64,000 bases of DNA from Isurus oxyrinchus. Its lineage: Eukaryota. The notes beneath the pieces were generated by a model. The model searched no databases. It was not told the origin of the DNA and was given only the letters and a program-made list of their open reading frames with translations. How positions within the stretch are numbered: position 1 is the stretch's first letter; every line of letters starts with the position of its first letter. Made by a program: the position numbers and the translations under genes. This document shows, one piece after another, positions 4,640 to 57,023 of this stretch. Location of the stretch: positions 4,216,001 to 4,280,000 of the forward strand of contig JANJGN010000034.1 in NCBI GenBank assembly GCA_026770705.1, in the 5' to 3' direction.

Positions 4640-4672
4640 GGTCTGAAGTGGAGTACCTGAAACAGAAAGAAG
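4640..4672 (+). CDS. 33-nt phase-1/1 micro-exon of putative coiled-coil (butyrophilin/BG-like tail?) gene; xSEVEYLKQKE
   Basis: tattcacag|GGTCTGAAGTGGAGTACCTGAAACAGAAAGAAG|gtatga; length a multiple of 3, open in phase 1. Confidence 0.6.
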
Positions 4673-5463
4673 GTATGACATTTAGCTCAACCCAGTACGT
4701 GTCAGATCTACTTTTGAGATTAATTGATTCGAATACATCGGTTAAAATTCGATTAGGTTTTAAAATTTCATGTAAATTTATTGCATTCCCACCAGATCGC
4801 TCTGACTAAAATCGGCTCTATGATATTGTCAATCGAATTAGCTAAATTAAAAGAGCTATTTTGTTTTAAACCACAACATATGATAAATTAATTTTACTTC
4901 AGGTAAGATTAAAAAAATCCTTATGACTTATTGTGGGAAGGATAACATTGTAAACACATATAATTCGCCTTTACGTTGCTTTGAAAATAACTGAGGCATT
5001 ATCTTGAATTTCGGGCAGTGAATATGATGTAGAACGATGTATTAGAATCACAGCTCAATATAGGGGTTTTAGCCTGCTGACCGGCATGTTTGCTGCAGCA
5101 AAGAAAAAGTGAAAATCTAGAAGAGCGGACATATTTCAAATTATGGCCGAAGATGATGTGGAGGACAGATATTACCAAAGTCCAGTTCACGCAATGTTAT
5201 TATTTAAAAGCAAAAATGTAAAAAAAGACTGAAGTTTTTTACTGCATTAACGCAGACACATTATTCCACGGTTTAAAGCGATATTTTTTGTTAAAGAAAT
5301 ATACAAGCCTCAAACAAGGAAACATTAAATACTATTTACTTAACCACCTACACACTATAGGCTTGAAACAACAGTAAATAAAGATTCATTACCAGGAGCA
5401 TTACTGTTGCTTACAAATTATGAATGACATTTAAATGTCTGATATGAGTCATACAGATCTTAC

Positions 5464-5627
5464 GCATTGTAACGACTTCCAGGTCCTATTCGTGTGCGAT
5501 TTAGCATGATCCAAAGCTAGAGCAGCGAACAAGCAATTGAAATTCCAGTAGCAAGCAAGAGCGCCTTTGCCACATATCTGCAGAACCTCCTCATTTCGGT
5601 TCGGATGATAACGGTAGCATAGGTCCT
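5464..5627 (-). pseudogene. possible decayed transmembrane exon of the antisense B7/butyrophilin-like pseudogene
   Basis: minus strand gatttcattag|AGGACC...AATGC|gtaaga; hydrophobic stretch ALLLATGISIA then CLFAALAL across a frameshift. Confidence 0.25.
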
Positions 5628-6339
5628 CTAATGAAATCGTCCATTAACATAAAGAACCACACCCATTGCATATTTGTTTATTTTCTGTTTCGGGGTATTG
5701 GTTGCATGTTGGTCGATCTACCGCACCACGGGCATCATTATGTGAAACTGAATGGCTCTGTGAGACATTATCTGTTTCAGCCAGTTAAAGTTTCCCTAGA
5801 AGATTTTGTTTCCATTCTCAGTTTCATTAATGATTCGTTTGCTTTCTCATTTTCCATTTTAGGTTTTCTTTGCGATTTGTGATTTTGTGTCAATGGACGT
5901 CAGCTTTGAAATCAACGAATTCCATGGCATCTCCCACCATCCTTCCAACCCCCTCAGCACCTGCACCCACCACACAGGCCACCCACGTCTGGGCAAAATC
6001 ATGCCTTACCGTGCTATTTATATTAAGCTTTTGCAATATTGCAGATTAACATACAATTTATTTTAACAAAATAAACACTTCAGACACTGCATGGACGACT
6101 TGAATTATTTTCCAAGATTGTTCTGTTATGCCTTTGTTTAATGGGTATGCATTACTCACATCACCGTCAAACGTTGCTATAGGCGTTCACCCTGGTATAC
6201 CTAAATATAGTGACTGATATTTATTTTTATACGCTAGGCTATGTCATCCTGAGACTTGTATGAAAAATGGGGTCATATTCCATCTAAATATTTTTAGGTA
6301 TCATTGTTCTGCAGCTTTGCTTAATGGAGTCTTGGTCCT

Positions 6340-8450
6340 GCTCCAGAATGCCCTATCAACATAGCTATCAATCTTCAAACAATTCGATGTATTCCACCTA
6401 ATGTCAACAAACGGCTGAATGTACTATACTGGATACTCAAAGAAATATTTACTACCCGGGCTATATTCCGAGAATAGTACTGCCGACCTCTGCTCTGAAT
6501 GTGCCACGCCCCTAGCGAAACTGTTCCAGTACGGCAAGAAATTTGACAACGAAACCGCAACGTGCAAAACTGTCAAGCTATGCACTGCACAGAAAAGGAA
6601 AGACGGCAAATGCAAGCAAGTCAGTTTCTGCCCCATCAGTACACTCTTGATCATCAGCAATGTGCTGTAAGAGGTCACCAATAGTGCTTTTAAGCTGCAC
6701 TTGCTGAAGAATAACCTGCTCACTGAGGTCCTGTTTTTAATTTGCCAAGTTAACGCACCTCTTGACATAAATAGAGACTTTGTTCAAGCCTAGAAAAAGG
6801 GTCTAAACTCCAGAGGTTCGATGAGTTTGGCTGCAATTAAAGGCAAGTCAGTATATGGCCGATTGTCATATAAAGTAGCCTTTGAATAAACTGGAGCCGA
6901 TAGCAATTAAGGGGACACTTTCCGATGATTGCAGGCATACCTAACACACAGGAAAATGTTTGTGGCAGTTGGAGGTCAATCATGAAAATGGAAATAAATG
7001 AAAGAACCAAGGGATCAGATCTAAGCTCTGCAGTCCTGCCCCATCCTGCCGTGAATGGTGCTGGGTAATGAAACAAATAAGAGGATCAGGTATCTCCACA
7101 AATATCCGCAACTGCATTGATGAAAGAGCCCAGCGCAGTATTGCAGACGACAAGGAGAAGATTTTTGTAATAAGTTCAAGTGAGCAGTGACAATTGAATG
7201 ATTCATTTCCCCCCTCCTGAATTCCTCAGCATCACAGATGCCAGTATTCATCCAATTCACTTCACTCCACGTGTTGTGGAAAACGGCTGAATGCACTCGC
7301 TAGTGCAAAGTTTGTGGCTCCAAACAACATGCCAGCAATAGTGAGGAGGACTGTCTTCCGGAAAAAATATGCGCATTAGGCAAGCTCTTCCTGTACAGCA
7401 ACAATTTTGGCATCTTCCTGGCAATATTGGCATCTGCCGAGGTACCTCCAGGCACATGTGCAGGACAAAGCCAACCAGCTTAATCACAAACCCATCTCCA
7501 TCATTATCTCTCTTGCAGGTAATCACTGCAGATGATTCTCATGACACTTTCCTTGGCCCAAACATCTTCGCTGCTACTCCAATAACTTTCCATCCATTTT
7601 GTGGCAAGAAGTCAGAATGTTCGCTGGTAATTGTACAATTATTAGCCCCATTTGCGACTCCTCAGATACAAAAGCAGACCGTATGCAATTTCAGCCAGAT
7701 GTAAACAACATCCAGGCTTTGGCTGAGAACTGGGAATAAACATCCTGTCTATGGAACTGACAGACAATGCCGATCTCTAACAACAGATAACATGGCCATA
7801 GTCCTTTGACATTCAACGCTATTACCAGCGGGGACATCCCACTTTTAACAACCTGGGCGTTACTGCTGTCCTGAAACTTATGTTGCAAGCCATAAATTGT
7901 AGAATTTCGCTGGAAGAGCAGGCCAGCGGCTAGGAATCCTGTGGCGCGTAATTCATCTCACAACTCCCCTAGGCTCCCACCACCTGCACTGCAAGAGATC
8001 ATGATGCAAAGCTCTCCTGTTGCCTTGCTAACAAAACTCAGGACGCTTCATACAATCCAGGAGAATGCAGCCCGTTTTAATTAACATCATATCCACAACT
8101 TTCATTCCTCCACCATCAGGGCGCAGTAAAATCGATGTGCACCATCCACAAGATATGCTTCAGTCACTCTTGAAGACTCCTTGGAGAGCACCTTCCAAAC
8201 CCACGGCCGCTGCCATCTAGTAGGAAAAGGGCAGCAGACAGGTGGCAAAACTTCCAAATAGAATCTCCCCTCCAAGTCACTCTCCATCCTGAGTTGGAAT
8301 TATATCCAATTTCCTTCTTTGTCGCTAGATCTATCCTGGAAAATCCTTCCTAAATGTACAATGAATGACCTATACCACATGGACTGCAACGGTCCCAGCA
8401 TTTCTCAAGGGCAATAAATCATGGACAATACAAGGTGGCGTAAAGCATAC
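6340..8450 (+). mobile_element. decayed Jockey/CR1-group LINE (second family), RT + 3' end, with an internal second copy of upstream sequence at ~7000-7460
   Basis: CSECATPLAKLFQY...CPISTLLIISNVL, FLGPNIF; 3' motif gcaccttccaaacccacggcc shared with other copies in the window. Confidence 0.8.
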
Positions 8451-8469
8451 AGTGATGACTGGCCAACCC

Positions 8470-10260
8470 AACTCCTTGACGCGCCCTTCACCAACTCCCT
8501 GCCACACATCCATTAATATGTGAACGTCTGATCTTATTTGGGCTGCACCTCCACTGTTTGTCTGCCAACATAACTCTTGACTCGCTTGTGGATCAACATC
8601 TCTCTAATTCAGCCATGAGTAGGACAAATGGTCCAATGATATGTGCTCCCTTTGCAGTAGAAGTTCAATGAATAACGATGGTCTGAGATTTGTTATTCCT
8701 GTTCATGGCGACATTAAATGGGTTATTTATGTTCTATGGACTGTCATGCTTAGTTGGTGATTCCCTTTCAGGGAAAATATGGTAGAAATTCCTCTGTGCA
8801 ATAAGACAGCTAGGCTGTTTCAGTAAAACCATCCTTGCTGCATAGGAAATCCAAATTGTTCATTGTTTCCTCAGATAACGTCACCATCATCTCGGGAATT
8901 AGCCGGTGGAACATTATATGAACTGCCTCCAATGCAAGAATGCTTCTCCGCCAGTTTTCCTTTCTGATTTTAATCATCTTCAAACACATGTTTTTCCTTT
9001 GGCGAACAATGCCATAAGCGTCCTTTCCAGTACCAACAAGTAGTAATGGGGTACAAGAACCCGGACCTTTGGGCAAATAAGTAGCAGCACCATTACTGCA
9101 CCCTACAAACTGTCCCGGAAAACAGAGTGAACACTCAGAGCCAGGAGGTTTGCCTCGGATCCCTTTACTAAATCCTGATATCACAGAGACCCATTTAACA
9201 TACAACGGGGCTAGCCAGTACTCTGTGGAAGCATCAGAGTGCACACTTAGTTATAGTAAAAGCTTGTGTAATTAATAGCATTGAAATTTTATCTTTGGCA
9301 TGCATACAATTGTTCTGTCTTAGTTTATAATTACGCAAAAACCTTGAGCAGTTACACAAAACCTTGAGTAGCCCATCCTGCAGCAATTGATCTGGACAGA
9401 CAACAGACAGCAAGACTAGGCCCTTTCTCATGTGCTGATAACAGGCTTCCTAACTTTGCTTCAAAGACTCTTGGTTCTTGGTAGTTTGCTTATGATACTT
9501 GCTTTTCTTCATTCACAATAGCTGAGAGTGCAGGTTTGTCTGCTACAGGTGCAAGGAGACTTCGTTGTAGAATTCCAATATGGTTTAAAAACTTAAGCCT
9601 TTGTTATCATGTGGATGTAGTTTATTCTCCCACACAAACTCTGAGTGCATTATTTTTTTTTTCAATGAGGATACCAAAGTTGTACACCGTGGGCTTCTCT
9701 ATAGCCAGTTTATTAATTCTTTCCTGCTATTGAATGTTGCAGTCAGTTTCATCATACCATTTGCCTTCCTAATTACATGTTGTACTGCATATCAACGTTT
9801 TTGATATGCATGTAAAGGGACATCTACATCGGCTCTAACTCATCTTTAAGTAAGATTTCTCCATTTCTGTTTGTTTCGCTCTTCAATGTTGATAAAACCA
9901 GGCATCCCCCCCTATATACTGTCTTATGTATTTTTTTTTTTTGCTGACAACCACTTTTCTCTTCTAATTATTTTCCATATTATCTGTCTCATCCTAACAA
10001 CCTGATGACAATCTAAGATTGTATAATCAGCAAACTTGGTTATAATGCAATCGATTATTTTATTCAAAGGAATAACGAAGGTCATATAGAGCTGAAGGCC
10101 GAATAATGATCAGTTGGCACTCCACCAGCTTAATTTTGCCACGCTAACAGCGACCCGGTTATCCCTGTTCTGCATCCTGACCGTGAACCAGTCCAGCTCC
10201 AGTGTTATTATGTCAGTCCAACACCATGATCTAACAATTTTAATTCTGCTTAATTTTCTA
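8470..10260 (-). mobile_element. decayed CR1 3' fragment, interrupted by an unclassified ~700-bp insert (~8950-9655)
   Basis: ILALEAVHIMFHRLIPEM motif on minus strand; CR1-like sequence resumes at ~9660. Confidence 0.6.
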
Positions 10261-10424
10261 AAGTGCCTTTTCTTCCTCTTTCTCACTCATCTGCCCATGC
10301 ATTCTTAAGACTGAATTCAGACGATTTTCTCCTGACAAAAGTAGCCTTGAAATTATAAAGCTGCCTGCTTCGGTCCCCACCCCATTCCCAACTACCCTTT
10401 AACAAATTGAGGAGTTAAATAGGT

Positions 10425-11300
10425 GAAAAGGAATGTCCAGAATACTCGACAAGTCAGATAGAACCCGTGGAGGAAAAGCCAGTTAGCCTTTCAGGTCCAG
10501 GTGACCTTTCACCGGAAAGGAAGAGAGATACAAAATGTAATAGTATTTTTTAAAGTTTGTAACCACAATTATTATTTTTTTTTGGGAAGGAGTGGGTTGT
10601 CAAGGGGGCAGCACGACAAAACATAAGGTCTGGAAGAGTGTGTAATGGTGGGGAGATGAAATGGCTAAGAATTTCATGATGCAATACCAATGAAAACAGC
10701 AATGGTCATAGGAAATTAGCAAACTTTTTGGGCACTTTAGGCATGATAAAAACACTATCTGAAATCAAAATGGAAAGATAAGGAGAAAAAGCACCCACGA
10801 TCAACACAACAAGGCAGGAGAGAGAGAAAAAGAAACATGAAATACAATAAAGTCTGCCATTATGATCCAGTGCCTTTGAACTCAGTTTTGAATTCAGACG
10901 TCTGTCAAGTGCCCAGTCAAAAGATAAGGATGGTCTTCAAGCTTGTCTTCACCTTCACTGGTACACTGTAGTAAGGACATGGACAGAATTCTCATCATCA
11001 ATGTAAGGCAACGAAGAAAAATTGAAAGCAACCAGATAACTTGTGCACTGTTTGTCACCAGAATGTTTGTGTTCTGCGGAACACACAACCAAAATATAGT
11101 TGCTTTAACCAATAAGCTGGAGGGAACATTGTGGGCATTGAATATAATATAGTAAGTAGGATGATGCACAAGTAACTGCCTCTTCGACTTGGAAGAATTT
11201 ATTTCAGCCTGTTGCCGTGAGATCAGCGTAAGTGAATGGACAGATGCTTCCTGCACTAACGTGAGAGGTATTATAGCAAAGGTAGCGACTGTCATGAACG
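10425..11300 (-). mobile_element. decayed Penelope-like element (GIY-YIG endonuclease remnant + terminal repeat)
   Basis: 10430-10520 is a diverged version of the repeat at 23850/31006; minus-strand 10940-11210 reads as a frameshifted GIY-YIG region (SSKSKRQLLV..YYIIFN..). Confidence 0.6.
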
Positions 11301-11759
11301 TCCTTGCATGAACAAAATAATTTTATCGTTTTGTGGTTAGAAAAATAGTGTAAAAGAAAACATTTCAATGATTTTCTGAGTGTCTGGAAAAACGATTTTG
11401 CTGCATTAATTTTTTTCCACAAGACGGTCGAAACCAACCTTCACTTCCGCTTTCAATTTCACCCACCTCCTCATCTCGGCTTTGCTAGAAAGAAGTAGAT
11501 ATATTTACGGAGATGAGTACTTGCAGCCCGTTAGCAACTAAAGCGAGGATCTTAAAACGGTCCATGCCAGAAAAAAAAACAATAATCGCCCTTTTAATGA
11601 CATGGCCAATGCACATTTCCAGTGACTTCACGATGGTAAACAACACAAAGCTAATTTTCTGGTCCATACATGTTGGATGTCACCCTTGAAAGTATTCGTT
11701 GTTGTTCCATCAGCATAGAGTATTGCACACATGGATTACAAGTTTATGTCTCCCCTCGG

Positions 11760-13220
11760 CTCAGTGGTGGCGCCAGAGAACAGGAGAATTGCAAAAACAA
11801 TGCTGTTGTCGAGAAAAGGTCATATGGACAAGCATAGCAAATATAGACCAGTCAAATTATATTCAATTGAGGGTAAGATTCTTGAAACAATAATTCTGCA
11901 TATAATTAGTAGTTACAAGGAAAATATATAGTTGGTAAGAAAGAGCCAACATGCACTTCAAAAGGGGCAATCGTCTATAACCAAGTTGCGGGAGTTTTAT
12001 GGGCAGGTAATCGAAAATGTTGGTGGGCTTAATGTTTTTGAAGTGGTGTACATGAACTTTATTTTTTTTTTACACAGTGCCTTACAATCGACTAATGAGA
12101 AAGCTTATTGCTCAAGGACTAAAAGGCCCTGGGGATACACAATTTGTTGAAACTAGAATGCAGAGATGAATAGTCAATGGGTATTTATGGGTCACTAGAA
12201 AGTTTGTAGTGGATCTCCTCAGGGGTCATTAATAGACCTTTGCTTTTCCTAATACATAACAATTATCTACAGCTTAGTGTGCAGGGGAGGATTTCAATGT
12301 TTTTGGATAATATGAAGCTCGATAGTTTTATGAAATGTGACGTTGGAGGGAGTGGAATTTCAAGTGCACAAAAATAAACTTGGTGGACTGGACAGTTAGA
12401 TGGAAGATGAAGTTCAATGTGGGGAAGTTTGAAGTGACAACCTTTGTAGGACGAACATGGACAGACAATATAAAGTAAAGTTTGAAATATTGAACGCAAT
12501 GCAGGAGCAGAAATACTTGGGCGTATATGTGTATAGGTCATTGAAGATGGCAGGACAGGTGGGGAAAGTAGTTCATAAAACATAGGCTATTCTGGGTATT
12601 ATTCATACGGAAATAGAGTTCAAAAGCTAATAAGTTATGCCATATTTATAAAAGGCACTTGTTGGACCTCAGCTGGAATATTGTGTACGGTTTTGGGCAC
12701 CATGTCATAGGAAGGATGTGAGAACATTGGGGCGAGGGCAAGGGTTATTAATAAGTTTCCTTCCAGAAATGAGAAACTTCAGCTATGAGGCTTGATTGGA
12801 GAGGTTGGGACAGTTCAGCTTGGAGAGAAGAAGGCTGAGAGGAGAGTTGATGGAGATGTTCGAAATCCTGGCAGGGCTGGACAGAGTAGATTGGGAGGGG
12901 TAACTACCAATTAAAAATGGGCTAATTACGCGAGGGCAACGATTTAGATTGACTTATAAAAGGATCAAGTGTGGAAGCAGTGAGAAAAGTTTTTCACACA
13001 CGGTTGGATCGAATCTAGAATGCATTGCCTGGATGTTTGGTGGAGGCAGGTTCAACCGAGGCATTGGCGAGGATATTCGATGCTTATTTGATTGGAAACA
13101 ATATGCAAGGGTATGGGAAATACACAGGGCAATGGCATTAGTTTCTGATGCTCAGCCGGTGAACCGGAGCAGGCATGGTGGTCCGAATGACCTCTTTCTG
13201 CGACATTAAGGTTCTGTGCC
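11760..13220 (+). mobile_element. decayed CR1, RT + 3' UTR
   Basis: KGHMDKHSKYRPVKL..GKILETII, KGQSSITKLREFY, VVYMNF, PQLEYCVRFWAP. Confidence 0.9.
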
Positions 13221-13298
13221 TCGCTGATTTCTTTGCACATAATTAATCGAATGACATTTGTTACAAAGGTGATTATATGTCTCTCTTTACTTCTGTAG

Positions 13299-13334
13299 AT
13301 CTCACGGAATGTTTGGGGAGGTTGGAGGTGCTAG
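13299..13334 (+). CDS. 36-nt phase-1/1 micro-exon; DLTECLGRLEVL
   Basis: ctctctttacttctgtag|ATCTCACGG...GTGCTAG|gttata; strong acceptor but weak donor; keeps the heptad register with the 22182 exon. Confidence 0.45.
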   Translation: MSRNVWGGWRC

Positions 13335-13417
13335 GTTATATAAGCCTTTTGTATTCATTTTTAAAAAGATTTGCCATGCTTCACTTTTTTTGTTGTGATT
13401 TCAATGTAAATTTTCCC

Positions 13418-13497
13418 AACTACTACTGTCACTATTATAAGCTCTGCTACTGCTCCTACTATTATTATTGATATTATTATTAATAATATTAGTAATA
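13418..13497. repeat. (TAC/TAT)n low-complexity tract
   Basis: seen directly. Confidence 0.7.
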
Positions 13498-13569
13498 ACG
13501 CCCTTAAAGTTTGCCTATGGAAGCACAACACTACACGTCTTGCTAAATGGAATGTTTCACACTACAAAC

Positions 13570-13920
13570 TGATCGTCGGACAGCAAGTTTTTAAGAACTA
13601 TTGGATTGGATATTTTTCTGTACAATATGCCGTCTACTCAGTCAAATTGGTTATACACTGCACTGCAGCATAAATTCTTATTCTGAAGAGGCCCTCTCTT
13701 CGTAGGTTGTATCTTTATTCAGGACTGATCAATTTTTTCAAGCATTCCAACAACGATAAAATAGTTAATTATTTGGATTGAAGACATTACATGAATCGCT
13801 TATATTAGAATATTACTGTGGTAAATTATCTCCTCTGCTGAATTATCCAACAACATACCAGTGTATATTGAAGTCTCTCTGCTATCAAAGCCACATGTAA
13901 TACTTAAAAGTCACATGTTG
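13570..13920 (-). pseudogene. decayed IgC-like exon of B7/butyrophilin-like pseudogene
   Basis: acceptor ttattttctcttcag at 13921; remnant EGLFRIRIYAAV..AYCTEKYPI resembles butyrophilin IgC 'EGLF.V...V...C...N'; stops and frameshifts; 3' boundary uncertain. Confidence 0.4.
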
Positions 13921-14129
13921 CTGAAGAGAAAATAATCTCGGAGGGTCTCTCAAAATGAGATTGTCAGATCAGCAGTCAATTAATATGCAGTCTCTGATAT
14001 CTGAATTTATTGCACTCTTTGAATTAACATCAGGGGAGGGCGGTAAAAAAGCAGTCAATCTGATGTTGCATATGATGGACAACACATCCATTCGAATGTC
14101 TACCCTTTGTGAGATCGTTATTCTTTTAG

Positions 14130-14470
14130 GGGATGTTGAGGTCGCTGAGTCGGCCAGGATGTATTGCTTATCTCTATTTGCCCTTGAGATGGAGTTCAGC
14201 AAGAAGTCTTGACGTGCTTCGGTCCTGGTGTACATTACTTGCTCGTAGGAAAGGTGTCTTCTAGACTTTCTATCCAGCGATAGTGAAGGAACGGGGATAT
14301 AGTTCCTAGCCAGAATGGCCAGAATGGCCTTGTCGGAGAAAATACAGGTGGTGCTGCTCCCATGCATCTGCTGCCCTTCTATTGTTTGGTGCTAGAGATC
14401 ACGCAACTGGACAGTTCTGTGCAAGAAGTCTTGGTGAAAGGCTGCTCATATTTATAGATAAGCTTTGCTT
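14130..14470 (-). mobile_element. 3' fragment of the second LINE family
   Basis: reverse complement of the 3' end seen at 8100-8450 (catctgctgcccttct..., gcccttgag). Confidence 0.6.
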
Positions 14471-14739
14471 CACATTCCTGAAGTTTTATTAGCAACTATC
14501 AAAGAAACACGAACCAGTTTACAAGTATCTCCTATTGTCTGTTTTGTTGCTTCGTATTAATCAATTTAAATAAAACATATACTAAACGGGTCGCTAGTTA
14601 TCTTTCAATGAAATGCAGTCATTTATCTCAACATCCTGGAAATGTGTAAACGTGCATCAGACAGGCTGAGAGTTGTGCTCCTCATCAAGAATGACTATGT
14701 TTAATTACATATCTCTTTAGATTTATTTCAAACATGTAC

Positions 14740-15104
14740 CGGAAATCCAAAGTTCATTTAAATTTGAATCGCATTATTCTATGATCTAATGCTATATTTT
14801 CAGTCTTTGCTGAAAAATTATTAGCAACTAAACAGAAAGCTAAATGTAATGGGTGTTGACGAATTACAGTGTGTGTTGCAAGTTTTACGTTTTATTCTAC
14901 GTTATTTTTAAGTTATTGAATAAGTGTACAACCTCTAACGTGGGGACAATCGCTCCAGGAGCATATAATTGGAAATATAAAGGTAACGATGCGGCTGGGA
15001 CAGGGGATTGTGTACAGAGATTACAGTCAAGCTCTATTGTCGTACGACTGATTTGTAGGTGTGAATGCACATAGAGGTGTGAACATTAAAAGTGCATTGT
15101 ATAT
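14740..15104 (-). pseudogene. decayed IgV exon, B7/butyrophilin-like
   Basis: atttcattttccag|ATATAC...TTTCCG|gtacat, 365 nt; remnants DIQC, TIELDCN (B strand), LYFQLY (C strand, Trp lost), VVHLFNN (cf. BTN VVHLYxNG), LSV*L, D*KYS (cf. DxGxYxC), DSNLNELWIS (G strand); several stops and frameshifts. Confidence 0.6.
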
Positions 15105-15617
15105 CTGGAAAATGAAATATAAGCACTTTATTTCAGAAGAAACTAAGAGAACCTGTGATGGCACAGCAGTGAAATATTTGAATTGTGTAGGGACTGTGGT
15201 GTGGTGAGAGTGAAGATTTTTATTTTTTTGGCGAAACGCCGATAGTGAAATGGAAGAGTGAAGGGATGGTAAATGGAACAAATTCAGCTGTGCCTTCAGA
15301 GTGCCTTCTTTGACTAGTATATCCCCAGTTCAACAGGGAATGTGTCACTCCTGTAAGTGATTAATGAGGATGAGATCGGACAAGTGGGCCAATCGACTGT
15401 GGAAGAACACTGCAGTAAAGTTCATTGTGCAATCATAAGATTTGATCAGCAATAAAAAAAGAAAAAATAATTATCTGGTGGAAACTTCTAAGCTGAATGA
15501 GATATACCTTCAAAAGAATGAAAGGGGGATTAGTTGTCATAAATTTGAACCAACAGCTGAGAAATAAATGTGCAATGCAACAATAAGTGATAATAAAGGA
15601 CGATTTGGTTTACTTAC

Positions 15618-15671
15618 CTGCTAGCCACATTCCAAGAAGGTGGAAAGGCAAAAAAAAAATCCAAAGATCAT
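15618..15671 (-). pseudogene. signal-peptide (leader) exon of the B7/butyrophilin-like pseudogene
   Basis: ATG at 15671, consensus donor CAG|gtaagt; as written it hits a stop, but one extra T in the T10 run gives MIFGFFFLPFHLLGMWLA plus phase 1; 513-nt intron to the IgV exon. Confidence 0.5.
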
Positions 15672-16269
15672 TGGATGACGAGGACGATGGAGAAATGTCG
15701 ATTCAAAATAAGACAGCTTCTAAGCACGCCACACTAAATGAACAAAACAAGTAAAGGTCTAATGAATTTAATTGAGGGAGGAAAAGTTGTCAATATAAAA
15801 AGGGCAAAGAGAGGTCATGAGACTAACCTGGATTTAAATGCTCAAATGCAGGTTTCCTGTTCTTTCTACCAAGTAACGACACAGGTAGAACCGGAAACTG
15901 TGAATTCTGGAAATGTTGAGCAATTTTCATTCCAAATATATTCAAATGCTCAAAGGTGATGGGTCTTCCCTGAGTCACGTGCCCATTTGCATCGTGTCAA
16001 GCAGAATAAATAATTAGATGTGTCTCAAAGCATAGTGTAAGAAGAAGAGGTTTCAATTCATGATATATTAGCACCTGTATTCCGAAAGATGGAACTGCTC
16101 CATTGCAATGGATTCCACTTTTACAGGGCTGAGGCCAGTGCCCTTGCACCTTGTATATCTGGGACAATAGATATTGGGTTAACCTAACAAAGATGGGTTT
16201 TGTGGAGTTGTTTGTGTATTCTAGGCAGGTTAGAACTCGAAATCCAACAAGAAAAGTATCGGTAATACT

Positions 16270-43400: not shown

Positions 43401-43569
43401 ATGCAACATATAAGTAGGGATAAAGGCAAACTACTGCGGATTCTGGAAATCTGATACAAAATGTTTCCTTCAAACACTCTCGAAACTTTGACTCTGCCTT
43501 TCTCTCCACAGGTTTTGTTAGACCTATTGTTTTGTTCGAACATCTTTCTGTTTTTTCCTGCAGAAGTAG

Positions 43570-44801: not shown

Positions 44802-44939
44802 NNNNNNNNNNNNNNNNNNNNNNNNNNNNNNNNNNNNNNNNNNNNNNNNNNNNNNNNNNNNNNNNNNNNNNNNNNNNNNNNNNNNNNNNNNNNNNNNNNN
44901 NNNNNNNNNNNNNNNNNNNNNNNNNNNNNNNNNNNNNNN
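44802..44939. other. assembly gap (138 N)
   Basis: run of N. Confidence 1.
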
Positions 44940-45509: not shown

Positions 45510-45935
45510 TTGAAAGAGGAGAGGCAGTGGAGAGATTGATAAAACCTGAGAGGTGAGGCAGTCGGGAAATTGAAATTTGTGCTAGAGGAGCTTGAAAACA
45601 GCGTCAGAGGATAGTCTTTCATGGATTTGAAAACTGTTTGAGAGGAGAGGCAGTCGACAGATTGGAAATGGTCCGAGTGCAATGGCACTGGGGAGATTGA
45701 AGACAGCTTGAGTGGAGAGGCATCTGGGAGATTGAAAACTACCTGAAAGGTGAAGCAGTCCAGAGACTAAAAGCAACGTGAAAAGTGAAGAAATCTGGAT
45801 GTTAAAAACAGCATGAGAGAAGTGGCAGGAGGGGGATTAACAAAAAAACTCAGCTGGGGAAGCAGTCAGCAGACGATAACAATTTGACTGGAGAGGCAGT
45901 CAGGAGACTGGATACAACCCGAGGGGAGACACAGT
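45510..45935 (+). repeat. degenerate ~34-35-bp tandem repeat (gagaggcagtcgggagattgaaaacagc..), probably the 5' region of the older CR1
   Basis: gaggcag-like anchors at 45521, 45555, 45647, 45717, 45752; lies directly upstream of the ORF1 remnant. Confidence 0.7.
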
Positions 45936-46099
45936 CTTACCCTGCGGGTCGAGAGGAGTCGGAGCTGCGAAAGAACATACTTTTTGATGACTTAGGCAGA
46001 TTTGAATAATCTGTGAGAGTGAAAACACAGGAAATGAACGACTTCATTTGTTCTTGAGCAGCTATCTTTTTGGATTGTTTTCCAGTGGTGCTTATTTTT

Positions 46100-48818
46100 G
46101 AAAAATAAATTTATAATCAAGAACAGGGAATGTTACAATAATTCGGCACAACAAATGGAGCTGATTTGTGCGTATGGGTGAATAATTTCAACTTTGTACT
46201 AAGGTCCAGTTTATTGTCAGTATTGGAAGACTGAGGTTGAAGTATGTTAAAGTACCTAAAGAAATTGAAAAGTTGAAGTTTAAAGCATTGCAGGGCAGCG
46301 GAACCAAGCCGAAGGCACGTCATGTGGCATTTGGGGAGCCCTGAACACCCAGAATACCGCCTGTGCAGAAAATTCCATCAGCTGAATAAATCAAAGTTTT
46401 GTTTTTCAGAGCTTGACAACCGGCTGGAGTCACTGAGGGGAAACACTGTGGCAAGTTCAGGGAGGTGGTCACACTGCAAGTAAGGGCCAAGCATGCAGAC
46501 AAGGAATGGATGACCGCCAGGTAGTCCAAGAGAAACATGCAAGCAGGCCAGAAGTCTGCTGAGGTACCGCTCACTAATATTTTTTTCCATTCCGGACATC
46601 GGTGAGGGCGAACGATGATTAGAGGAGTGCAGCAAGCGTCAAGATATAGGAAAAAGGCGATGCCCAGCTGTACGACAGGAGGTAAGAGAGCAAGAGGGCA
46701 GCATACATCGCTGAGTTTTTAGTTTGAGGATAGGAAAGACATTGCAGTGAGAGTCCAGATGACATTAGTGTGGTGTGTTGAGTCTCCGGAGTTAGCATCA
46801 AGAATTACGCGGACGGATTGCAGTACATCCTTCTGCGGGAGGTCAAACAGCCAGGCATTATGTTTCGGATTGGTACTAATGGCATTGAAAGGAAGATGGA
46901 AATGTTTCTGCACTCCAAACATAGAGCAGCAGGTAGACAATTTGCAAGTAGGGTCTCCAAAGCAGTAGCCTCCAGTTACTCCCAGTGACATGTGCAAATG
47001 AGTACAGAGTTAGGAAGATAAAACAGAACGATTTGTGGTTTTAAATATAGTGCAGAGAGAGGGCTTAAATTCGTGGTACACTGGAAATGGCGCCGGGCAT
47101 AGGGCGCCAGTAAACGCCAGACGGATTTCACCCGAACAGAGCCAGGGCTGTTTCATTCTGGGCGGTTTCTCTGGTGCTGGTGGGGAGATTTCAGGTAAAT
47201 TCTGCAGTGAACTTTGAACCAGGAGAGAATATCAGGGAGCACATAATTCTGGGAGAGGCAGAAGACAATAAAATTGGGGATAGTAAATTAACAGATGCAT
47301 TTGGAGTAAGTGGACAAGTATTGAAGTCTAAATCAGGATTTTCCTGCAGGGATGGCAAGGCACACAGCAGTGTTAAGAAAAATTGAGACTTTCGGTCCCA
47401 GATGGTCTTTCTAGGATTATGAGGTTCTGGCGATAACGGAGGTGTGGCTTAAGGAAGGATAAATCTGGTTGTTAAATACACTGTTTACAAAATGTTCAGA
47501 GAAGATAGGAAAGGGGAAAAAAGGAGGCGGGGTGGCGTTTGTCTTAAGGTGACCATGGCAGTATTGGGAGAAAGGATGTGTCTGAGTATTCAACAGCAGG
47601 ATCTATTTGCTAGAGGTAATGCATAAGAAGGGTAGAGTCACATTGCTCGCTGTAATGTATAGATCATCAGCTAGTTGGACGGATATCAAAGAACAAATAA
47701 ATAAGGACATTAGAGACAGGTGCAAACATCATAGAGTAGAAATAATAGAGATACACTAATAAATTAATAGATTTGCGCTGGGGTAATGAATGGGTAAAGG
47801 AGACAGAGCGACAAGGGTTAGAAGTTCGTTTTCAGCAGAATTTTGAATAGCAGTTTGTGTCCAGTCCAGCAGCTAATGAGGCAGTGTTAGAACTGGCCCT
47901 TGGGAATGCGACATGCCAAGTTGATCAAGTCACAGCAGTGAAGCATTTAGGGGACGTTATTCATTGTATCATAAGGCTAAGGACGATAGTGGAAAACTTA
48001 ATTTGTCAACCCGGAATCAGAATAATCAAAAACCTGGAGAACAGACTTTCCAAAGGGCAGGAATGGAACTGGGAATGATAGGCTGTAACCATGGTTGGTG
48101 AGAAAAGCAGCAGTTTAACAATGGACTACCATCAATGAAAAGATGATTTGGTCAGAGGCAAGGCATGTTCCTTCAAAATGGAAGGAAAGTACAAACGAAT
48201 CCAAAGCTGCCAGGATGGCACAGGAGATAAAAATTAACATTAAAAAGAATAATTGTGCTTATGACATATTTCAGCTAGCAAATGCAATAGATAATCAAGC
48301 TGAAAACAGAGGGTTCAGGAAGGATGTGAAAAGGCAAATACGTGCAGCAAAGAGGGATTATTAAAAAAAAAACTGGCAGCTAACGTAAAAGGATATCACA
48401 GCGCATTCATAAAGCACATCAATAGTAAAAATATGTTAAAAGGAGTAGGGCTAAATTGGGGCCAAAAGGGTATTTGCGCATAATGGCAAGAGACGTGACT
48501 GAGATGTTGTATAAATACTTTGCATCTGCCTTTTGGAGGCAGTTGCTCTTGAGGACATTGTGGCATAGGAGGGAACTCAGTCACTAGGAGGGTTTAAAAT
48601 TGATAAAGAAGAAGATATTTGATAAGTTGTCGATACTTTAAGTTGATAAGGGACCAGGACAGAATGAGATGCAAGTAAGAACATTGGAGGGAGTGAGAGT
48701 GGAAAGTTCAGGGGTACTGACAGTAATCTTCCAACGATAATTTGATTCGGGGGAAGTGTCAGAGGGCTGTAGATTTGCAAAACATTACGCATTAGTTCAA
48801 GGAGGTTCTAAAGATGAA
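46100..48818 (+). mobile_element. older CR1, 5' part (ORF1 esterase remnant, APE, start of RT)
   Basis: remnants of the esterase region (DGFHPN), ITEVWLK, KKGGGVA, and ends at ..KGSKDE-like sequence. Confidence 0.8.
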
Positions 48819-49117
48819 GTGACTGAAGCATTCTGGTAAAATCATCACAGCCACCGCGACTCAGGAGGGAATCGAGGAGAAGGACTCTTGCACTCAACAG
48901 GAGGAGAGGCATCCAAACAGAGGGCTCAGGTGAGAGGTGACTGAAGCATTCTGGGAAAAGTCATCACAGCCACCACGAGTCAGGAGGGAATCGAGGAGAT
49001 GGACTCTTGCATTCAACAGCAGTAAGGGCATCCAAGAGGAAGCTCAGGTCAGAAGTGACTTGAAGCATTTTGGGAGAAGTCATCGTAGCCATCGCGACTC
49101 AGGAGAGAATCGAGGAA
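48819..49117 (+). repeat. ~2.5 tandem 118-bp monomers at the CR1 5' end
   Basis: gtgact..gaagcatt units start at 48819, 48937, 49055. Confidence 0.9.
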
Positions 49118-52100
49118 GCTGCACAGTCAACGAAAGGAATAGCCACAAACATATATTGCTGCATTCTGTCCATCCCTACCTCCTCCTCAAATCTAAAAGA
49201 AAAAGAGAGAGGAAGAGGCAGTGACTTCAGCAATGCACCAGACCTGCCTTCTGAAAGTGAATTTTAAAGAAAATGCAGCTGATTGGTGAGTAAATCCTGG
49301 GAGCAGAGTCGGAAGGTGGAGTACCAGAGCGTTGACCTCGGGGCACATAATAACTGAAGACAAAACAGAAAAAGTGAAGTCACAGGAAAGTTGTCACCGG
49401 ATTGTTTGGTAGGAAATCTGCATCAAATTTGAAAAAGAAATACTGCAAACCTAATTAATAAATTAATTATCTAAGTAGAGATGGCTGGGCAGTTCATGTG
49501 CTGTAGCTGTATATTGACGGAGTTGGCAGATCCTATTGTGATCTACAGTAACCCCATATTCAGCAAGCATTAGTTGCTCGAGGAACTCCGGCTCAGAGTT
49601 GATGAGCTGGAGTCCAAGCTCTGGATACTGCAGCACATCCAGGAGGAGGAGAGTTACCTGCATGCTCTGTATCAGGAGGTGGTGACAACAGCGAGATTAA
49701 GTACCTCAAGTCCAGCCAGTGGTCAGTTTCAGCGCGTTGTGACAGCAAGTGAGGGAGGTAGAGGGATCTTGTATTCAGGAATAGAGGAGTCTCAGCACAT
49801 GACCTTGTCCAACAGTGTGGATGATGGAAAGGGCTGCAGGGAGGATGAGCCAGCAGAGCACAACACCGTGGCACAGGAGGCCGTTCAAGAGGGGGGTGCA
49901 AAAAGACAACTGGTAGTTGCCGGAGAATCCATAATTAGGGGAAATGATAGCTTTCTTTGTAAGCAGGATCGAGAGTCGCGCATGTGGCCTGCCCAGTGTC
50001 AGGATGATGGACATTTCCGACCCACTTAAAAGGATATTGGAGAGGGAGGGGGATGATGCAGTTGTTGTGGTCCACGTTGGGACAAATAACATAGGTAAGA
50101 CGAGGAAAGAGGAACTGTTTGTGTTTTGTCAGGAACTAGGAAATAAATTAACGGACATGTCCTCAAAGTTTATGATCTGCAGATTACTTCCCAAACCACG
50201 GGAAAATTGGCATTGGGGCGTGAGAATAAGGGAAGTTAACACGTGGCTGAAGGAGTGGTGCAGGAAAGAAGGATTCCATTTCATGGGGCACTGGCATCTG
50301 TATCGGAACATGAGGTATCTGTTCCATTGTGACGGTCTCCACCTGAACCGATCTGCGATCAACATTCTAGTGAAAATGGTAAATAGGGGGGTCAACTTGA
50401 CATTAATCTAGAAAGAAAGTGTGGTGAGTGAGGGGGGGTGGGGAGGTGGGGGGTGGTTAAGGGTAGAACTCCAAGAAGTATGACTAATGCGAAACAAAGT
50501 AGCTGGTTAGCATGTGGAGGGGGTTGGGGGGGGGGGGGGGGTGGGGGGTGCAGTGGTGGATTCAACTTCATGGAAAATTATTAAATAACTGAAAAGAAAG
50601 GAGAGCCCAGGAGAGGCTATTAAAGTATCCAGAACATAAAAATAAGACAGTGTATGTGGAATGGGCTAAGAATCTAACTTCAAGCACATCAGATAAAGGG
50701 ACGACAATGTGAAAGGGTCAGGAAATAGAGGACTGAAGGTGTTGTATCTGAATGCATGCAGTGCACAAAATAAGGTAAACGAGCTTGAGGCGCAGATTGA
50801 AATTGGAAGGTATGATGTGGTGGACATTACGGAGAAATGGCTGCACCTGGATCAGGACTGGGAGCCAAATATACAAGGATATACGTCTTACCGACAAGAT
50901 AGGCAGGTTGGCAGAGGGGGTGGTGTTGCTTTGTTAATAAGAAATTAAGTTAAATCGATAGCAACAAATTCTTTAGGGTCAGATGATGTAGAATCTGTTT
51001 CGGTAGAGTTGTGGAACCGCAAAGCTAAAAAAAAACATAACGGGAGTTACGTGCAGTCCTCCGAAGAGTGATCATGATATGGAGCACAAGATTTACCAGG
51101 TGGTAGAAAAGGATGTAAGAAAAGGACGGTTACAGTGATGATGGAGGTTTTCAATATGCAGGTAGACTGTGAAAAACAAGTTGGTATTGGATCACAAGAA
51201 AAGTAATTTGTGGAATATCTACTAGATGGCTTTTTCGAGCAGCTTGTGGTGGAGCCCACTAGGGAACAGACAATTCTAGATTTAGTGATTTGTAATGAGG
51301 CAGATTTGGAAAGGGAGCTTAAGGTGAAGGAACCATTAGGAGGAAGTGACCATAATATCCTCTAATTTACCATTCAATTTGAGAGTAAAAAGCTAGAATC
51401 AGATTCAACGGTATTACAGTTGGATAAAGACAACTGCAGAGGCATGAGGGAGGAGCTCGCCAGAATTGACAGCGAGATCAGCCTAGCAGGAAAGCCATTG
51501 GAACAGCAATGGCAGCATTTTCTGGGAGCAATTTGGGAGACACAGCAAAAAATCATCCCTAGGAAGAAGAAGCATACTCAAGGGAGGACGAGGCAACAAT
51601 GGCTGACAAGGGAAGTAAGGGACAGCATAAAAGCTAAAGGGAAAGTATACACTATGTCGAAGAGCAGTGGTAAACCAGGGGATTGGGAAGCCTACAAAGA
51701 CCAACAGATGACGAATAAAAAAAGGAATAAGGAGGGAGAAATTAACTATGAGGTTAAACTAGGCAAAAATATACAAAAAAAGGATTGCAAGAGATTTTTT
51801 TGATTTATACAGGGTCATAGAGAGGCAAAAGTGGACAATTGGCCGCTGGTAAATGAGGCTACAGAAGTAGTAGTGGGGAATAAATGAATGATGGAAGAAC
51901 TGAATAGGTGCTTTGCGTCAGTCTTCACAGTGTAAGACACGAGTAACGTCCCCAAAGTTAAAGGGAGTCGGGGGGTAGAGATGAGTATTGTGGCCATTAC
52001 CAAGGAAAAGGTGCTAGGAAAACTGAAAGGTTTGAAGATGGATAAATCACCTGGACCAAATGGTTTACACGCCAGAGTTCTGTACGACATAGCTGAAGAG

Positions 52101-53648
52101 ATAGTGGAGGCATTAGTGGCGACCTTTCAGTAATCATTGGAGCAGGGAGGGTCCCAGAACACTGGAACATAGCTAATTTAACACCACCCCCCCCCCCCCA
52201 CCCGCCCCCTGCCCCTGCTGTTTAAGAAGGTATTCAGCCAAAAGACGGGAAGTTACAGGCCAATTATCCTGATCTCGGTCTTTGGTAAGATTTTAGAGAC
52301 CATTATTAAGATGTGATTTCAGAATACTTGGAAGTGCATGGTAAAATTTTATAGACAGCATGTTTTAATTAAGTGGACGTCATGCCTGACAAATAATTTA
52401 GAATTATTTGAGGAGTTAACCAGTAGGGTAGACAAAGGAGAGACAATTGTTTAAAGCTACTTGGACTTCCAGAAGACCATTGACAAGGTGATGCATAGGA
52501 GGCTGCTCAGTAATTTAAGAGCCAATGGTGTTAGAGGCAAGGGACAAGCACTGATAGAAGATTGGCTGTCTGACAGGAGGCAGAGAGTGGGGATAAGGGT
52601 ATCCTTCTAAGGATGGCGGCCGATGACAATTGTAGTTCCACAGGGGTCAGTGTAGGGACCACAACCTTTTACTTTACACATTAAAGATCTGGATGAAGGA
52701 ACAGAGGGCATCTCGGTTAAGTTTGCAGATGATACAAAAAGAGGAGGAGGGACAGGTAGTATTGAGGAGGTGGGGAGGTTGCAGAACGATTTGTACAGAT
52801 TAGGAGAATGAATAAGATTTGACAGATGGAATACGACCTGTGGAAGTATGAGGTCATGAACTTTGGTAGGAAGAATAGAGGCATAGATTATTTTATAAAT
52901 GGGGAGAGAATTCAGAATTCTGGAGTGCAAAGGGACTTGGGAGTCCTAGTCCAGGACTCTCTTAAGGTTAAATGGCTGATTGATACGGTAGTCAGGAAGG
53001 CAAATGCAATGTTGGCATTTATTTCGAGAGGACTAAAATATAACAACAGGGATGTGCTGCTGAGGCTTTATAAGGCTCTGGTGAGAAAACACTTAGAATA
53101 TTGTGAGCAATTTTGGGCCCCATATCTCAGGAAGTATGTAGTGGCCCTGGAGACGGTCCAGAGGTGATTCACGAGAATGACCCCAGGAATGAAAGGCTTA
53201 ACTCATGAGGAAAGATTGAGGACTCGGGGTCTATACTTGATGGAGTTTAGAAGTATGACGGGGAAACTGATTGAAACTTACAGATTACTGAAGGGTCTGG
53301 AAAGAGTGGACGTTGGGAAGATCTGTCTATTAGTAGGGGAGGCTAGGACCCGAGTGCACAGCCTCAGAGTAAATATACGTCATGTTAGAACAGAAATGAG
53401 GAGAATCTTCTTTAGCCAGAGAGTGGTAAATATATGGAATTGATTGCCACAGAAAGCTGTGGATTACAGCTCATTGAGTGTATTTAAGACCAAAAATAGA
53501 TCGGCTGTTCATTGGTAAGAGGATCAAATGTTACAGGGAGAAGGCGGCAGAATGGGTTTGAGAAACGTATCAGCTATGATTGATTGGTGGAACAGGCTCG
53601 ATGGGCCGAATGGCCTAATTTCTGCATGTATGTCTTATGGTCTTATGG
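48819..53648 (+). mobile_element. near full-length younger CR1 (5' monomers, ORF1 zinc-finger/leucine-zipper + SGNH esterase, ORF2 APE-RT), inactivated
   Basis: ORF1 from ATG 49481 (CCSC..LLEELRLRVDELE; GESIIRG, VHVGTNN, DGLHLN); ORF2 from ~50709 (YLNACS, ITEKWL, GGGVAL, YLDFQK, VPQGSV, KFADDTK, HLEYCEQFWAPYL); 3' end (tcttatgg)x2; many stops and frameshifts. Confidence 0.95.
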
Positions 53649-54857
53649 CCCTGCGGTTGCAGTCCTGTCAGTTTAACTTCCTTGGTGAGAAAACTTCTAG
53701 AAACAATTCTTTGGAATATAATTAGCAGTCACAAGAAATAAACTAGTATCGATTAATTGAGTAGAATCAGCACCAATTTTTAAAGGCAAACCACATCTAA
53801 CTAACTTTCTGCAGTTTTGTGAAGTGGTAACAGAGATGGTTGTTGAGGGCAACGCAGTTCATGTGTTGTGTAACGACTTCCAAAAAAAGTTGGGTAGAGT
53901 ACCACTGTGCTGGGGGCAATATCAAAGCTTGCGTACAACATAGATATCGGGAGAATGGTAAACTGTGAGGAGGACAGTGCAAGATTTCAAAAAGGCATTA
54001 ATGCATTTGTGGAGTGGGCAGATAGTTGGCAGATGAATTTCAAAGCGAAGAAGCGTGAGTAGATGCACTTTGGTACAAAGACCATGGAGATAGAGTATAA
54101 AATAAAGTGTGCTAATCCAAAGGGTATGCAGGAGCAGAGAGTCCTGGTCGTACATGTACATAATTAATTAAAAGTGGGAGGGCAGGTACAGAGAGCTGTT
54201 TTTAAAGCTAACAATATTTTAGGCTTCATTAGTGGGAGCATAAAGCACAAGAGCAGGGAGGTTATGATGAAGTTATACAGGGCACTGTATTGAACTCACC
54301 TGGAACATTGTGTAGAGCTCTGAACGCAACACTTTAGGAATGTTTTGACTACTTTGGAAATAGTACAGGGGAGGTGTGCAAAAATAGTTCCAGCGAAGAG
54401 ACACTTCAGATATGAGGAAACATTAGAGAAGCTGCTACTGTTTCCCTTGTAAATGAAAAGGCAAAGAGGCGATTTGTTTTTAAGTTATCAAAATCATCAG
54501 GGGGCTGGAGAGAACAAATGGGGAGAACCTGTTCTTCCTGTAACTGGATATAGAATTCGAGCCACGGTTTTAAAGTGTTTTGTAAAAGAAGCCAACACGA
54601 GGTGAACAAAAAGAAACACATTTTTCACATAGCGAGTTGTTACAGTTTGGAATACACTGTCTGGAAGACTGGAGGAGCCAGTTTCAATTGAGGCATTCAC
54701 GGCAACTTGGGCGCTTATATATATAGAAACTATGTGCAACATGTGAGGGAAAAGACAGGAGCTTGGCACTTTAGTTAAAGTGCTCAGAGAGATGGTGCAG
54801 AGACGATAGGCCGAATGGCCTCATTCTTACCAGTAACTATGTGTGATTCTGTGACTC
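53649..54857 (+). mobile_element. older CR1, 3' part (continuation of 46100-48818)
   Basis: resumes with P..SPVSLTSL..KLLETI; ends gtgattctgtgactc. Confidence 0.85.
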
Positions 54858-56996
54858 TCATTATGAACTGCCACGTACCTGGGGAACCACATCCTTAGTT
54901 GACTGGTTTTCTTGTGAGTCAGCAGTTGACAAATCTTGTTCGATCATTGGCTTTATAAATGGAGATTCATTCTCGGCTGAATCTCTCCCATGCTGGACAA
55001 AATACATTAGAAATGCCGTTTAAGGCCTAGACAATATTGCCTGGAAACTAACGTAATAGAACAACATTTGGGGCGCTTCGTTCTTTGCAGAGACTACCAG
55101 ATGTAGAATTGTTCCACTTACAGTAAACAATATTAAGCGCCGACTTTAAAAAGTAATCCAGTTTCTGAGCTGGTTTCATATTGAGAAACAAGGATTTATT
55201 TCCGCAGACAGAAAACTAGTTATACACAGGGCACAAATGTAAAACATGTGTCAAAAAGCCATGAGGTGCAGCAGAACTGTGCTGGATGGAAAACTTACTG
55301 AATTGTGGAAAGGGGGGCTGATGGATACAGAATTTTCTGATTTCTCAATGGGGCGGAATTGTTTGTTGTTTCCCAAGTCTTAGTAATGTGTGCTTTGGTT
55401 TTGAGGCCTCTTTGTTCCTGCAGTCTCACTAACTATCTCCTTTACACAGACCTACCAGATGAACATTTTAGTTGTGTTAAATTTATCAACGTTCTGTCAA
55501 ATTGTGCATCTGTTTTGTTCTTTCTGCTGAATATCGTCCTGCTTTGCACACCTCTAATTTGGTTGAGCTTGCCAGACAGTCCTTTTGCGCATCCTGAATT
55601 TAATAAATTCAGATTACATGAGCCTGCATTCTCTGCCTAGGTGGCAAGTTCCCGAATGTACTCCCACAATCACTCGACATGTCCACAGACAGATTCAAAC
55701 ACCCCGTGAAATCTAATGAAATCAACCAGTTTTGAGCGCCGGCCCTCCACCTGTAAAATCACGTACAATGGCCCTTGGCCATTTTTATATAACAGATTGT
55801 TTCTGAGCCCACAGTGAAAATGTTGGTGTTCAGAATTTTAATAATGGAGTGTCTTAATTGAACAAACAATATCCGATTTTTTTTGTTATTGCCTTCAAAA
55901 ACTTCATTGCCCCATTAAAAGCAATTTCCAAATCTGCATGCCGAATGGATTGATATTAGTTTTGGCCAGTATGGCATTGACAGTTAGTTAAAATCTCCAA
56001 ATGTGATATTTTGTTGCATTAAGTGACATTGATTTAATTCAGTTCAATATAAGATGTCTTACAGGTCGTTTATCACACAGCACTTCTCGAATTCTATTGC
56101 TGAGGAATATTGTTGACGGAGTTATCCTTGAGTCTAAGATACCTAACATTAATGCTCAAAGTATTCAGTTATATAGTGATATTTCGGTTAAGTTTTTTTG
56201 TGATTTGTGCACGTTCTCTGACAATTAGAATATTTGTGATTCTTATACTTCCTTCAACAGAAAAGGAACAGTTATTGAAAGAGGATGGTAATCAGTTATA
56301 TTTTAAGATTCGTTTATATGTACAGTTTGCATTATGCATGTTGTTAGAATCTTTATGGAATACGGGCGCCAGGGTCAATACCAAACTTTAATGCCAATCC
56401 GTAATTTCCATTGAGAAGTTTTAGGACTTGTGGCGTATGGTCCCTTTTCTGGAGAGGCAATGGTGGTTTCATTTACTGTTAGTTCTATAATTGTGAACAT
56501 ATTTTGAACGATGTACGGTTAGGTTGGAGAGCTGACATGACCTGCCTTGTGGATTATGACATGTTTCAGCTATGTCGGGCGAGATTGTTTAACCACTTTG
56601 CCTGGCATAAAATGCGTCCCTTTGTTTCTGATATAAGCTGTTTTTCACTTTACCTAATTGCATGCACTTCAAGTCACTGTATTGAAACAGGTTTGATCAC
56701 TTGGTATAACGTTAGAGTGATGTGTATTCCACTTCTTGTGGAAATGCATCGTTGTGGTATTTCATGTGGCCTGTGGTGAATGGCTTATAGAGTATAATCG
56801 AAGGTCAATTTAGAATTAATAAATCTGTTCCATTGCAGCGTGCATTGTGGCGTCATGCTATCGACATTGAAGTTACCCACGGCAGTGAAAGTACACGATG
56901 CTGTCGATGCTTTGGAAAAAGTTAGAATGTGATGCTATGAAGTGTATTTTATAACAGAATGGCATGCCAATGTAACTATACATGGTGTTTCTACAG

Positions 56997-57023
56997 CTTT
57001 CGACGCAAAGTGCAAAACCACAG
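56997..57023 (+). CDS. 27-nt phase-1/1 micro-exon; AFDAKCKTT
   Basis: ggtgtttctacag|CTTTCGACGCAAAGTGCAAAACCACAG|gtaaac. Confidence 0.6.

Follow-up and report, generated by a model that had tools for sequence, protein, structure and literature searches.

What kind of gene hides behind a handful of very short exon-like segments scattered through otherwise unremarkable DNA? The question is raised by a window of 64,000 nucleotides (nt) in the 4.98-Gb genome of the mako Isurus oxyrinchus (positions 4,216,001 to 4,280,000 of contig JANJGN010000034.1, here C34), in which an initial annotation recognized six segments and joined them into the continuous coiled coil of a butyrophilin- or BG-like or other coiled-coil protein. 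Coordinates given below are relative to this window, the C34 position being 4216000 + x. We find that all six segments are probably exons from the interior of a single plus-strand gene, gene 1, which spans about 810 kb and contains the whole window (1..64000). This gene, in which a rod encoded by micro-exons is followed by a B30.2 domain, is very probably real.

The segments themselves are as described: each is preceded by AG, followed by GT and open in phase 1, and the quoted peptides are reproduced. They also exceed chance expectation, as had been argued, since candidates bounded by AG and GT are enriched by strand and by length. Between -20 kb and +210 kb, there are 19 such candidates of 27 nt on the plus strand versus none on the minus strand, and 17 versus one of 36 nt, while every other length from 12 to 70 nt occurs at most four times on the plus strand. 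A generic splice scan of the flanks added dozens of further 27- and 36-nt candidates on the plus strand. A model of splice signals and composition, trained on 200 exons outside -25..+70 kb, made ten calls in the window at a score of at least 8 on the plus strand and none on the minus strand; these represent eight distinct non-repeat sites, one repeat site and one alternative donor. Five of the six segments score like real exons (Table 1). Four reach 8, the exon at 42124 falls just short, and the segment at 56997 lies inside the minus-strand background (maximum 4.8). A candidate at 1576-1602 was dropped as a repeat.

The heptad register fared less well. The six-exon join does place Y, L, L, L, I, L, I, F and T at every seventh residue, but the six segments were not shown to be consecutive: four exons absent from the set (those at 2290, 21120, 30713 and 56261) score 10.6-16.9, and three of them fall between the six. 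When the missed exons are added, mean hydrophobicity at the best heptad position drops from 0.84 to 0.47. The perfect register, offered as an argument against chance, looks like a selected subset because, of the 462 ordered sets of six exons that 11 candidates allow, only 8 attain 0.84, although the array itself is non-random. With at least four equally good exons missed, the unbroken six-exon heptad is therefore probably not the real splice; the six-exon join is possible as an isoform rather than as the default. The 14-kb gap that follows 42150 includes a run of N (44802-44939), which leaves room for a hidden exon.

The proposal of a hidden micro-exon gene with large exons beyond the window was borne out when 600 kb on each side were examined, both the continuing array and a terminal B30.2 exon being found in the flanks; the scale of six exons was too low by about 35-fold. 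At a score of at least 7, the gene model comprises 221 micro-exons, 95 of them of 27 nt, 88 of 36 nt, 34 of 21 nt, three of 30 nt and one of 33 nt. Almost all of the 21-nt exons form a single block at -145..-29 kb, and the remainder of the array consists mostly of 27- and 36-nt exons. The joined translation has 2,189 amino acids (aa) and no stop codon, with 7 Pro and 62 Cys. Among candidates picked by splice signal alone, 183 of 185 are open in phase 1, compared with 115 and 53 in the other phases, and the minus strand over the same span gives two to four calls at thresholds of 8 and 6. Blocks of micro-exons have been duplicated together with their introns at +211..+255 kb, +410..+424 kb and -109..-85 kb (flank identity 0.76-1.0), a pattern that points to growth of the rod by tandem duplication.

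The downstream B30.2 exon that the initial annotation had envisaged was found 536 kb past the window end. A phase-1 acceptor at +600507 opens a 172-codon frame to the stop, with AATAAA about 700 nt further on. The exon encodes a B30.2 domain (Pfam SPRY, E 2.9e-14), whose best matches of solved structure are BTN3A1 (2e-20), TRIM58 (1.5e-18) and TRIM21 (6e-16). Four paralogous B30.2 exons, with identities of 40-59%, lie on C34 at 2.71, 3.47, 6.40 and 7.50 Mb; contig C21 has two more (36% and 31%). Micro-exon arrays were seen in all paralogue regions examined, namely parts of genes 1-5 on C34 and both C21 copies; a B30.2 domain of its own clade, preceded by phase-1 exons of 21, 27 and 36 nt, is the defining trait of this family. 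Between B30.2 paralogues, the ratio of nonsynonymous to synonymous substitution rates (dN/dS) is 0.36 and 0.46; the terminal domain is intact and under purifying selection. A very large cluster of B30.2 exons at 82-118 Mb of C21, which holds most of the 150 SPRY hits scored (150 of 308 candidates), surrounds the two C21 members (89.7 and 91.3 Mb); this cluster is a possible place of origin of the family.

Table 1. Features of gene 1 in window-relative coordinates (minus sign, upstream of the window)
Feature	Position	Strand	Remarks
Likely non-coding first exon	ends -217373	+	conserved block with donor
111-nt phase-1 exon with first in-frame ATG	-210463..-210353	+
About 221 micro-exons	-205734 to +598277	+	splice/composition model
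27-nt phase-1 micro-exon, newly found	2290..2316	+	score 10.6; non-repeat
33-nt phase-1 micro-exon (first segment)	4640..4672	+	score 12.3; sole 33-nt exon of the gene model
36-nt micro-exon (second segment)	13299..13334	+	score 8.7; canonical L2/C5/L9/L12 pattern
36-nt micro-exon, newly found	21120..21155	+	score 12.6; 36+27 pair with 22182
27-nt micro-exon (third segment)	22182..22208	+	score 16.7
27-nt micro-exon, newly found	30713..30739	+	score 11.5
Possible 27-nt micro-exon, weak	39287..39313	+	score 4.8, top of minus-strand background
36-nt micro-exon (fourth segment)	40901..40936	+	score 14.3; one genome match only
27-nt micro-exon (fifth segment)	42124..42150	+	score 7.9; 36+27 pair with 40901
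27-nt micro-exon, newly found	56261..56287	+	score 16.9
27-nt candidate (sixth segment), weak acceptor	56997..57023	+	score 3.4, within background
Terminal B30.2 exon	+600507..+601027	+

The product is predicted to be a coiled coil, in agreement with the original proposal, as hydrophobic a and d columns run across the 221-exon translation. Hydrophobic residues occupy positions 2, 5, 9 and 12 of the 36-nt exons and position 4 of the 27-nt exons, so that a pair of 36 and 27 nt makes three heptads; a 21-nt exon makes one. In the true exon order the heptad score is 1.166, higher than in any of 200 shuffles (1.019±0.018). Strong heptad character is confined to 46% of 28-residue windows, and the rod is jointed, not continuous. 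At a rise of 0.148 nm per residue, its extended length is predicted to reach up to about 325 nm.

The closest database relatives all come from cartilaginous fish (catsharks, bamboo, epaulette and basking shark, skate, electric ray and chimaera), where they are named TRIM39-like, TRIM58, TRIM69-like, A33-like, butyrophilin-like, nuclear-pore anchor-like or hypothetical; a search confined to proteins of 302-2000 aa did not detect the family. They include XP_042192744 of the chimaera ('nuclear-pore anchor-like', 1,697 aa), XP_055510696 of the little skate ('TRIM69-like'), XP_038668997 and XP_038672306 of a catshark ('TRIM39-like'), XP_069775384 of the electric ray, and the further chondrichthyan models GCB73088 and GCC29436 of the same clade. 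They share with gene 1 the B30.2 clade, the order of rod and B30.2 domain, and blocks of 9 and 12 residues; unlike gene 1, they are short or misleadingly named, and some consist of the B30.2 exon only. Pfam searches of four relatives gave SPRY/PRY only, with no RING or Ig (immunoglobulin) domain and one sub-threshold stray hit besides. Between two annotations of the chimaera model, 11 of 15 gaps are 9- or 12-residue blocks, and over all 11 model comparisons, which are not all independent, 16 of 32 gaps have these lengths. Catshark and epaulette-shark peptides align exon by exon to the C21 paralogues, and when the rod of skate XP_055510696 was compared with eight-exon chains of gene 1, the top 4 of 214 lay at the 3' end. 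Cross-species conservation was not shown for the window's own exons, matches being limited to the paralogues and the 3' end of gene 1. A single-sequence AlphaFold model of the skate protein was poor (pLDDT, the predicted local distance difference test, 45; helices 3-57 and 67-105) and is not used as support.

Quick trees of 135 and 41 B30.2 rows, with no outgroup and with labels taken from motifs (52 multi-B30.2 rows and one repetitive row had been excluded from 188), place the domains of the family on one side of a long branch with a Shimodaira-Hasegawa-like approximate likelihood ratio (SH-aLRT) of 100, apart from rows bearing RING/B-box or Ig domains. A single clade of family and Ig rows was rejected by the approximately unbiased test (p-AU 5e-6), a result that says little because the Ig rows are themselves not one clade. 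Two bony-fish proteins from Amia, P0009 and P0013, combine a membrane segment, a coiled coil and B30.2 with no Ig or RING domain; their B30.2 domains lie outside the family.

Is gene 1, then, a butyrophilin or a BG gene, as initially assigned? Its design resembles that of butyrophilins and BG genes, yet it is no butyrophilin, because searches found no exon for an Ig, RING or B-box domain and its B30.2 domains form their own clade. The upstream IgV, IgC and transmembrane exons that such an assignment implied were not found. As the genome-wide V-set search had scored only 150 of 3,319 candidates, the Ig test was repeated locally upstream of genes 1 and 2, the gene 2 interval being bounded by the last exon of gene 1: none of 95 plus-strand open reading frames (ORFs) of at least 80 aa (95 of 99, four spanning locus borders) hit an Ig family, whereas both of two control exons did. 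Our own Ig hidden Markov model (HMM) gave a best E of 0.71 in comparison with 7.5e-6 and 0.23 for controls. No transmembrane exon was found upstream, where the first exon is itself only a candidate.

Gene 1 shares with butyrophilins such as BTN3A1 and BTN2A1 the heptads in small phase-1 exons and the C-terminal B30.2 domain, but has about 300 heptads where they have a few. The residues that we take to form the phosphoantigen pocket of BTN3A1 (H351, H378 and R418, in the numbering assumed here) align to S, S and G in gene 1. TRIM proteins with B30.2 likewise combine a coiled coil with a terminal PRY-SPRY exon, and two of the paralogues lie in the C21 cluster; the rod of gene 1, in contrast, has more than ten times the length and is assembled from micro-exons, and an HMM of 25 database TRIM N-termini, run without a genomic positive control against all examined ORFs of at least 30 aa, found no RING or B-box (best E 0.43). 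Enterophilin-1 of mammalian enterocytes, a cytosolic protein with a long leucine zipper and B30.2, is far shorter than gene 1; the likeness, compared by architecture and not by sequence, lies in zipper and B30.2. Passages on enterophilin-1 in PMC13749957 describe its binding to sorting nexin 1. For butyrophilins, parts of PMC4046983 and PMC12841164 describe heptad repeats followed by B30.2, and cartilaginous fish have ordinary butyrophilins according to the latter. The sections of PMC5938342 on chicken BG tails describe heptads encoded by numerous 21-nt exons, the presence of Cys, an exon number that varies, and alternative splicing, as well as a BG-derived intestinal zipper protein that regulates actin-myosin. 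Gene 1 shares such a heptad tail with 21-nt exons and Cys; the BG genes of those sections have signal, single IgV and transmembrane exons and no B30.2 described there, whereas gene 1 has no IgV found upstream and consists mostly of 27- and 36-nt exons, more than 220 in all, across 810 kb.

On balance, and by a modest degree, we favour the reading that a cytosolic protein of at least 2,400 residues, a coiled-coil rod tipped with B30.2, is the product of this single gene, about 810 kb in length. Exon 1 would be untranslated, translation would start in exon 2 (the 111-nt exon) without a signal or membrane segment, and all micro-exons would be joined in a single transcript. Two chains would zip as a parallel dimer into a jointed rod, with register breaks such as those in the window acting as joints, and the paired B30.2 heads would be held as a tether or scaffold binding a protein partner. 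The BG-derived zipper protein and enterophilin suggest, by analogy, that this partner may belong to the cytoskeleton or the trafficking machinery instead of being a T-cell receptor. Skipping of frame-neutral exons could tune rod length, with which the isoform gaps in relatives are consistent.

The 5' evidence appears to favour an untranslated exon 1 and a cytosolic protein, a topology we hold to be slightly the likelier. Genes 1, 2 and 4 share a unique block that terminates in a GT donor. In none of the three does an ATG within 900 nt stay open as far as this donor, and when the block is spliced in silico to exon 2 the first in-frame ATG falls inside exon 2. The 111-nt exon has a counterpart, 70% identical, that opens gene 2. 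The alternative that the same gene yields an anchored or secreted product, through a short N-terminal hydrophobic segment from a further exon, is appreciably less probable; the rod would then be either a butyrophilin/BG-like tail lacking Ig domains or an extracellular structure linked by disulfides. The 111-nt exon begins with a conserved short hydrophobic stretch, three database models have hydrophobic N-termini, and the 62 Cys recall the Cys of BG tails built of 21-nt exons in the sections of PMC5938342 mentioned above. However, no conserved coding leader was found between genes 1 and 2, and no hydrophobic coding exon 1 (ATG, hydrophobic stretch and donor) common to paralogues. One of the three database N-termini, that of XP_060706632, falls within the intron preceding a 27-nt exon when aligned with its mako paralogue, which has about 20 further micro-exon candidates upstream; intron run-in gives a similar false hydrophobic signal in 8 of the 221 exons of gene 1. 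A database 'signal peptide' can thus be intron sequence, which calls for caution in reading topology from these models. Moreover, in genes 4 and 5 the opening micro-exon, a rod exon, has Met at codon 2, a feature of none of 302 other exons (0/221 in gene 1 and 0/81 in gene 3), and N-glycosylation sequons number 7 among 86 Asn, about chance level. Searching with the N-terminus of the chimaera model by tblastn gave no match (best E 4.9).

Three further 5' candidates were rejected: an exon 1 candidate in gene 2 not shared by paralogues, which resembles a remnant of a long interspersed nuclear element (LINE); a 75-nt 'exon 2' candidate in gene 4, a repeat; and a signal-like candidate at -255213, which lies past the first exons of gene 3 and has no paralogue. 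The gene 4 5' region (C34:6447832-6455835) is a 78-83% identical duplicate of that of gene 2 (+626000..+634373); the 111-nt exon was not found in it, and the 21-nt exons come directly.

Several points weigh against a single cytosolic product. The upstream block is not proven to be an exon because its identity between genes 1 and 2 (about 60-63%) is near that of the intron flank before exon 2 (58%). The eight codons before the first ATG of gene 1 differ from those of gene 2 by three synonymous and two conservative changes, which hints at translation from an upstream start, and the hydrophobic start of the chimaera model could be real: against exon 2 it gives a weak match in gene 2 (13 of 1000 shuffles) and none in gene 1 (157 of 1000). 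Many Cys of the rod stand at d positions, as would suit an extracellular disulfide-linked dimer. The whole-gene exon counts are partly circular because parts of gene 1 trained the model, and the splicing of the array is predicted from genomic sequence. In 8-13 duplicated pairs of rod exons dN/dS is about 0.5-0.9, with intervals reaching 2.3, which suggests little amino-acid constraint. Among five RNA runs of the same species, the contigs of four left the terminal coding exon without coverage and one gave trace depth in one 3' bin, which is no evidence on expression.

Real exons might also never be joined in a full-length message, with shorter isoforms made through internal starts and heavy skipping and only 3' parts joined to B30.2. 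Most database models have 170-460 aa, isoforms differ by whole micro-exons, and the register breaks in the window would fit. Yet the 1,697-aa chimaera model exists, each array has one leader region and one B30.2 exon, internal exons of gene 1 lack Met at codon 2, and micro-exons extend at least about 57 kb upstream of the start of one short model; we regard this alternative as improbable. Less probable still is a decaying pseudogene with freely drifting exons: the dN/dS of duplicated rod exons is indistinguishable from 1, but the splice-selected exons are almost all stop-free in phase 1, the B30.2 domain is intact and under purifying selection, and relatives exist in sharks, rays and chimaera. 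That the segments are chance splice-like matches picked by eye, as the background score at 56997 and the selected register might suggest, is refuted for the array as a whole by the strand and length enrichment and by exon-by-exon matches across species in paralogues and at the gene 1 3' end.

In the surroundings, gene 3 runs on the minus strand from -241 kb to below -600 kb, head to head with gene 1 and about 25-30 kb from it; between the two lies a candidate exon of 249 nt whose generic splice sites are very strong (-229358..-229606, minus strand). The window also holds a 119-nt tandem repeat in 2.5 copies (48816-49116) and broken ORFs at 1258-1698, 49574-50411, 51366-51803 and 59248-59709, which resemble remnants of LINE retroelements.

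Literature searches, judged in part by titles and the opening of abstracts and with subscription journals outside their coverage, found no paper on this family. What is new is very probably, as judged from the genome, a variant of the micro-exon heptad and B30.2 design. Five genes apparently fill about 5 Mb of one contig, of which annotation leaves fragments misnamed as TRIMs or butyrophilins, and the family is older than the shark-chimaera split. More tentatively, it may be an old cartilaginous-fish family of genes on the megabase scale, with nearly as many exons as titin, in which more than 200 frame-neutral micro-exons would form a splice-tunable ruler: splicing would determine the length and joints of a cytosolic rod of hundreds of nanometres that positions paired B30.2 sensor heads, with no Ig domain, RING or membrane anchor. 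The family represents a third use of B30.2, beside TRIMs and butyrophilins, and an extreme test case for the recognition of micro-exons across kilobase introns and for the growth of a rod through exon duplication.

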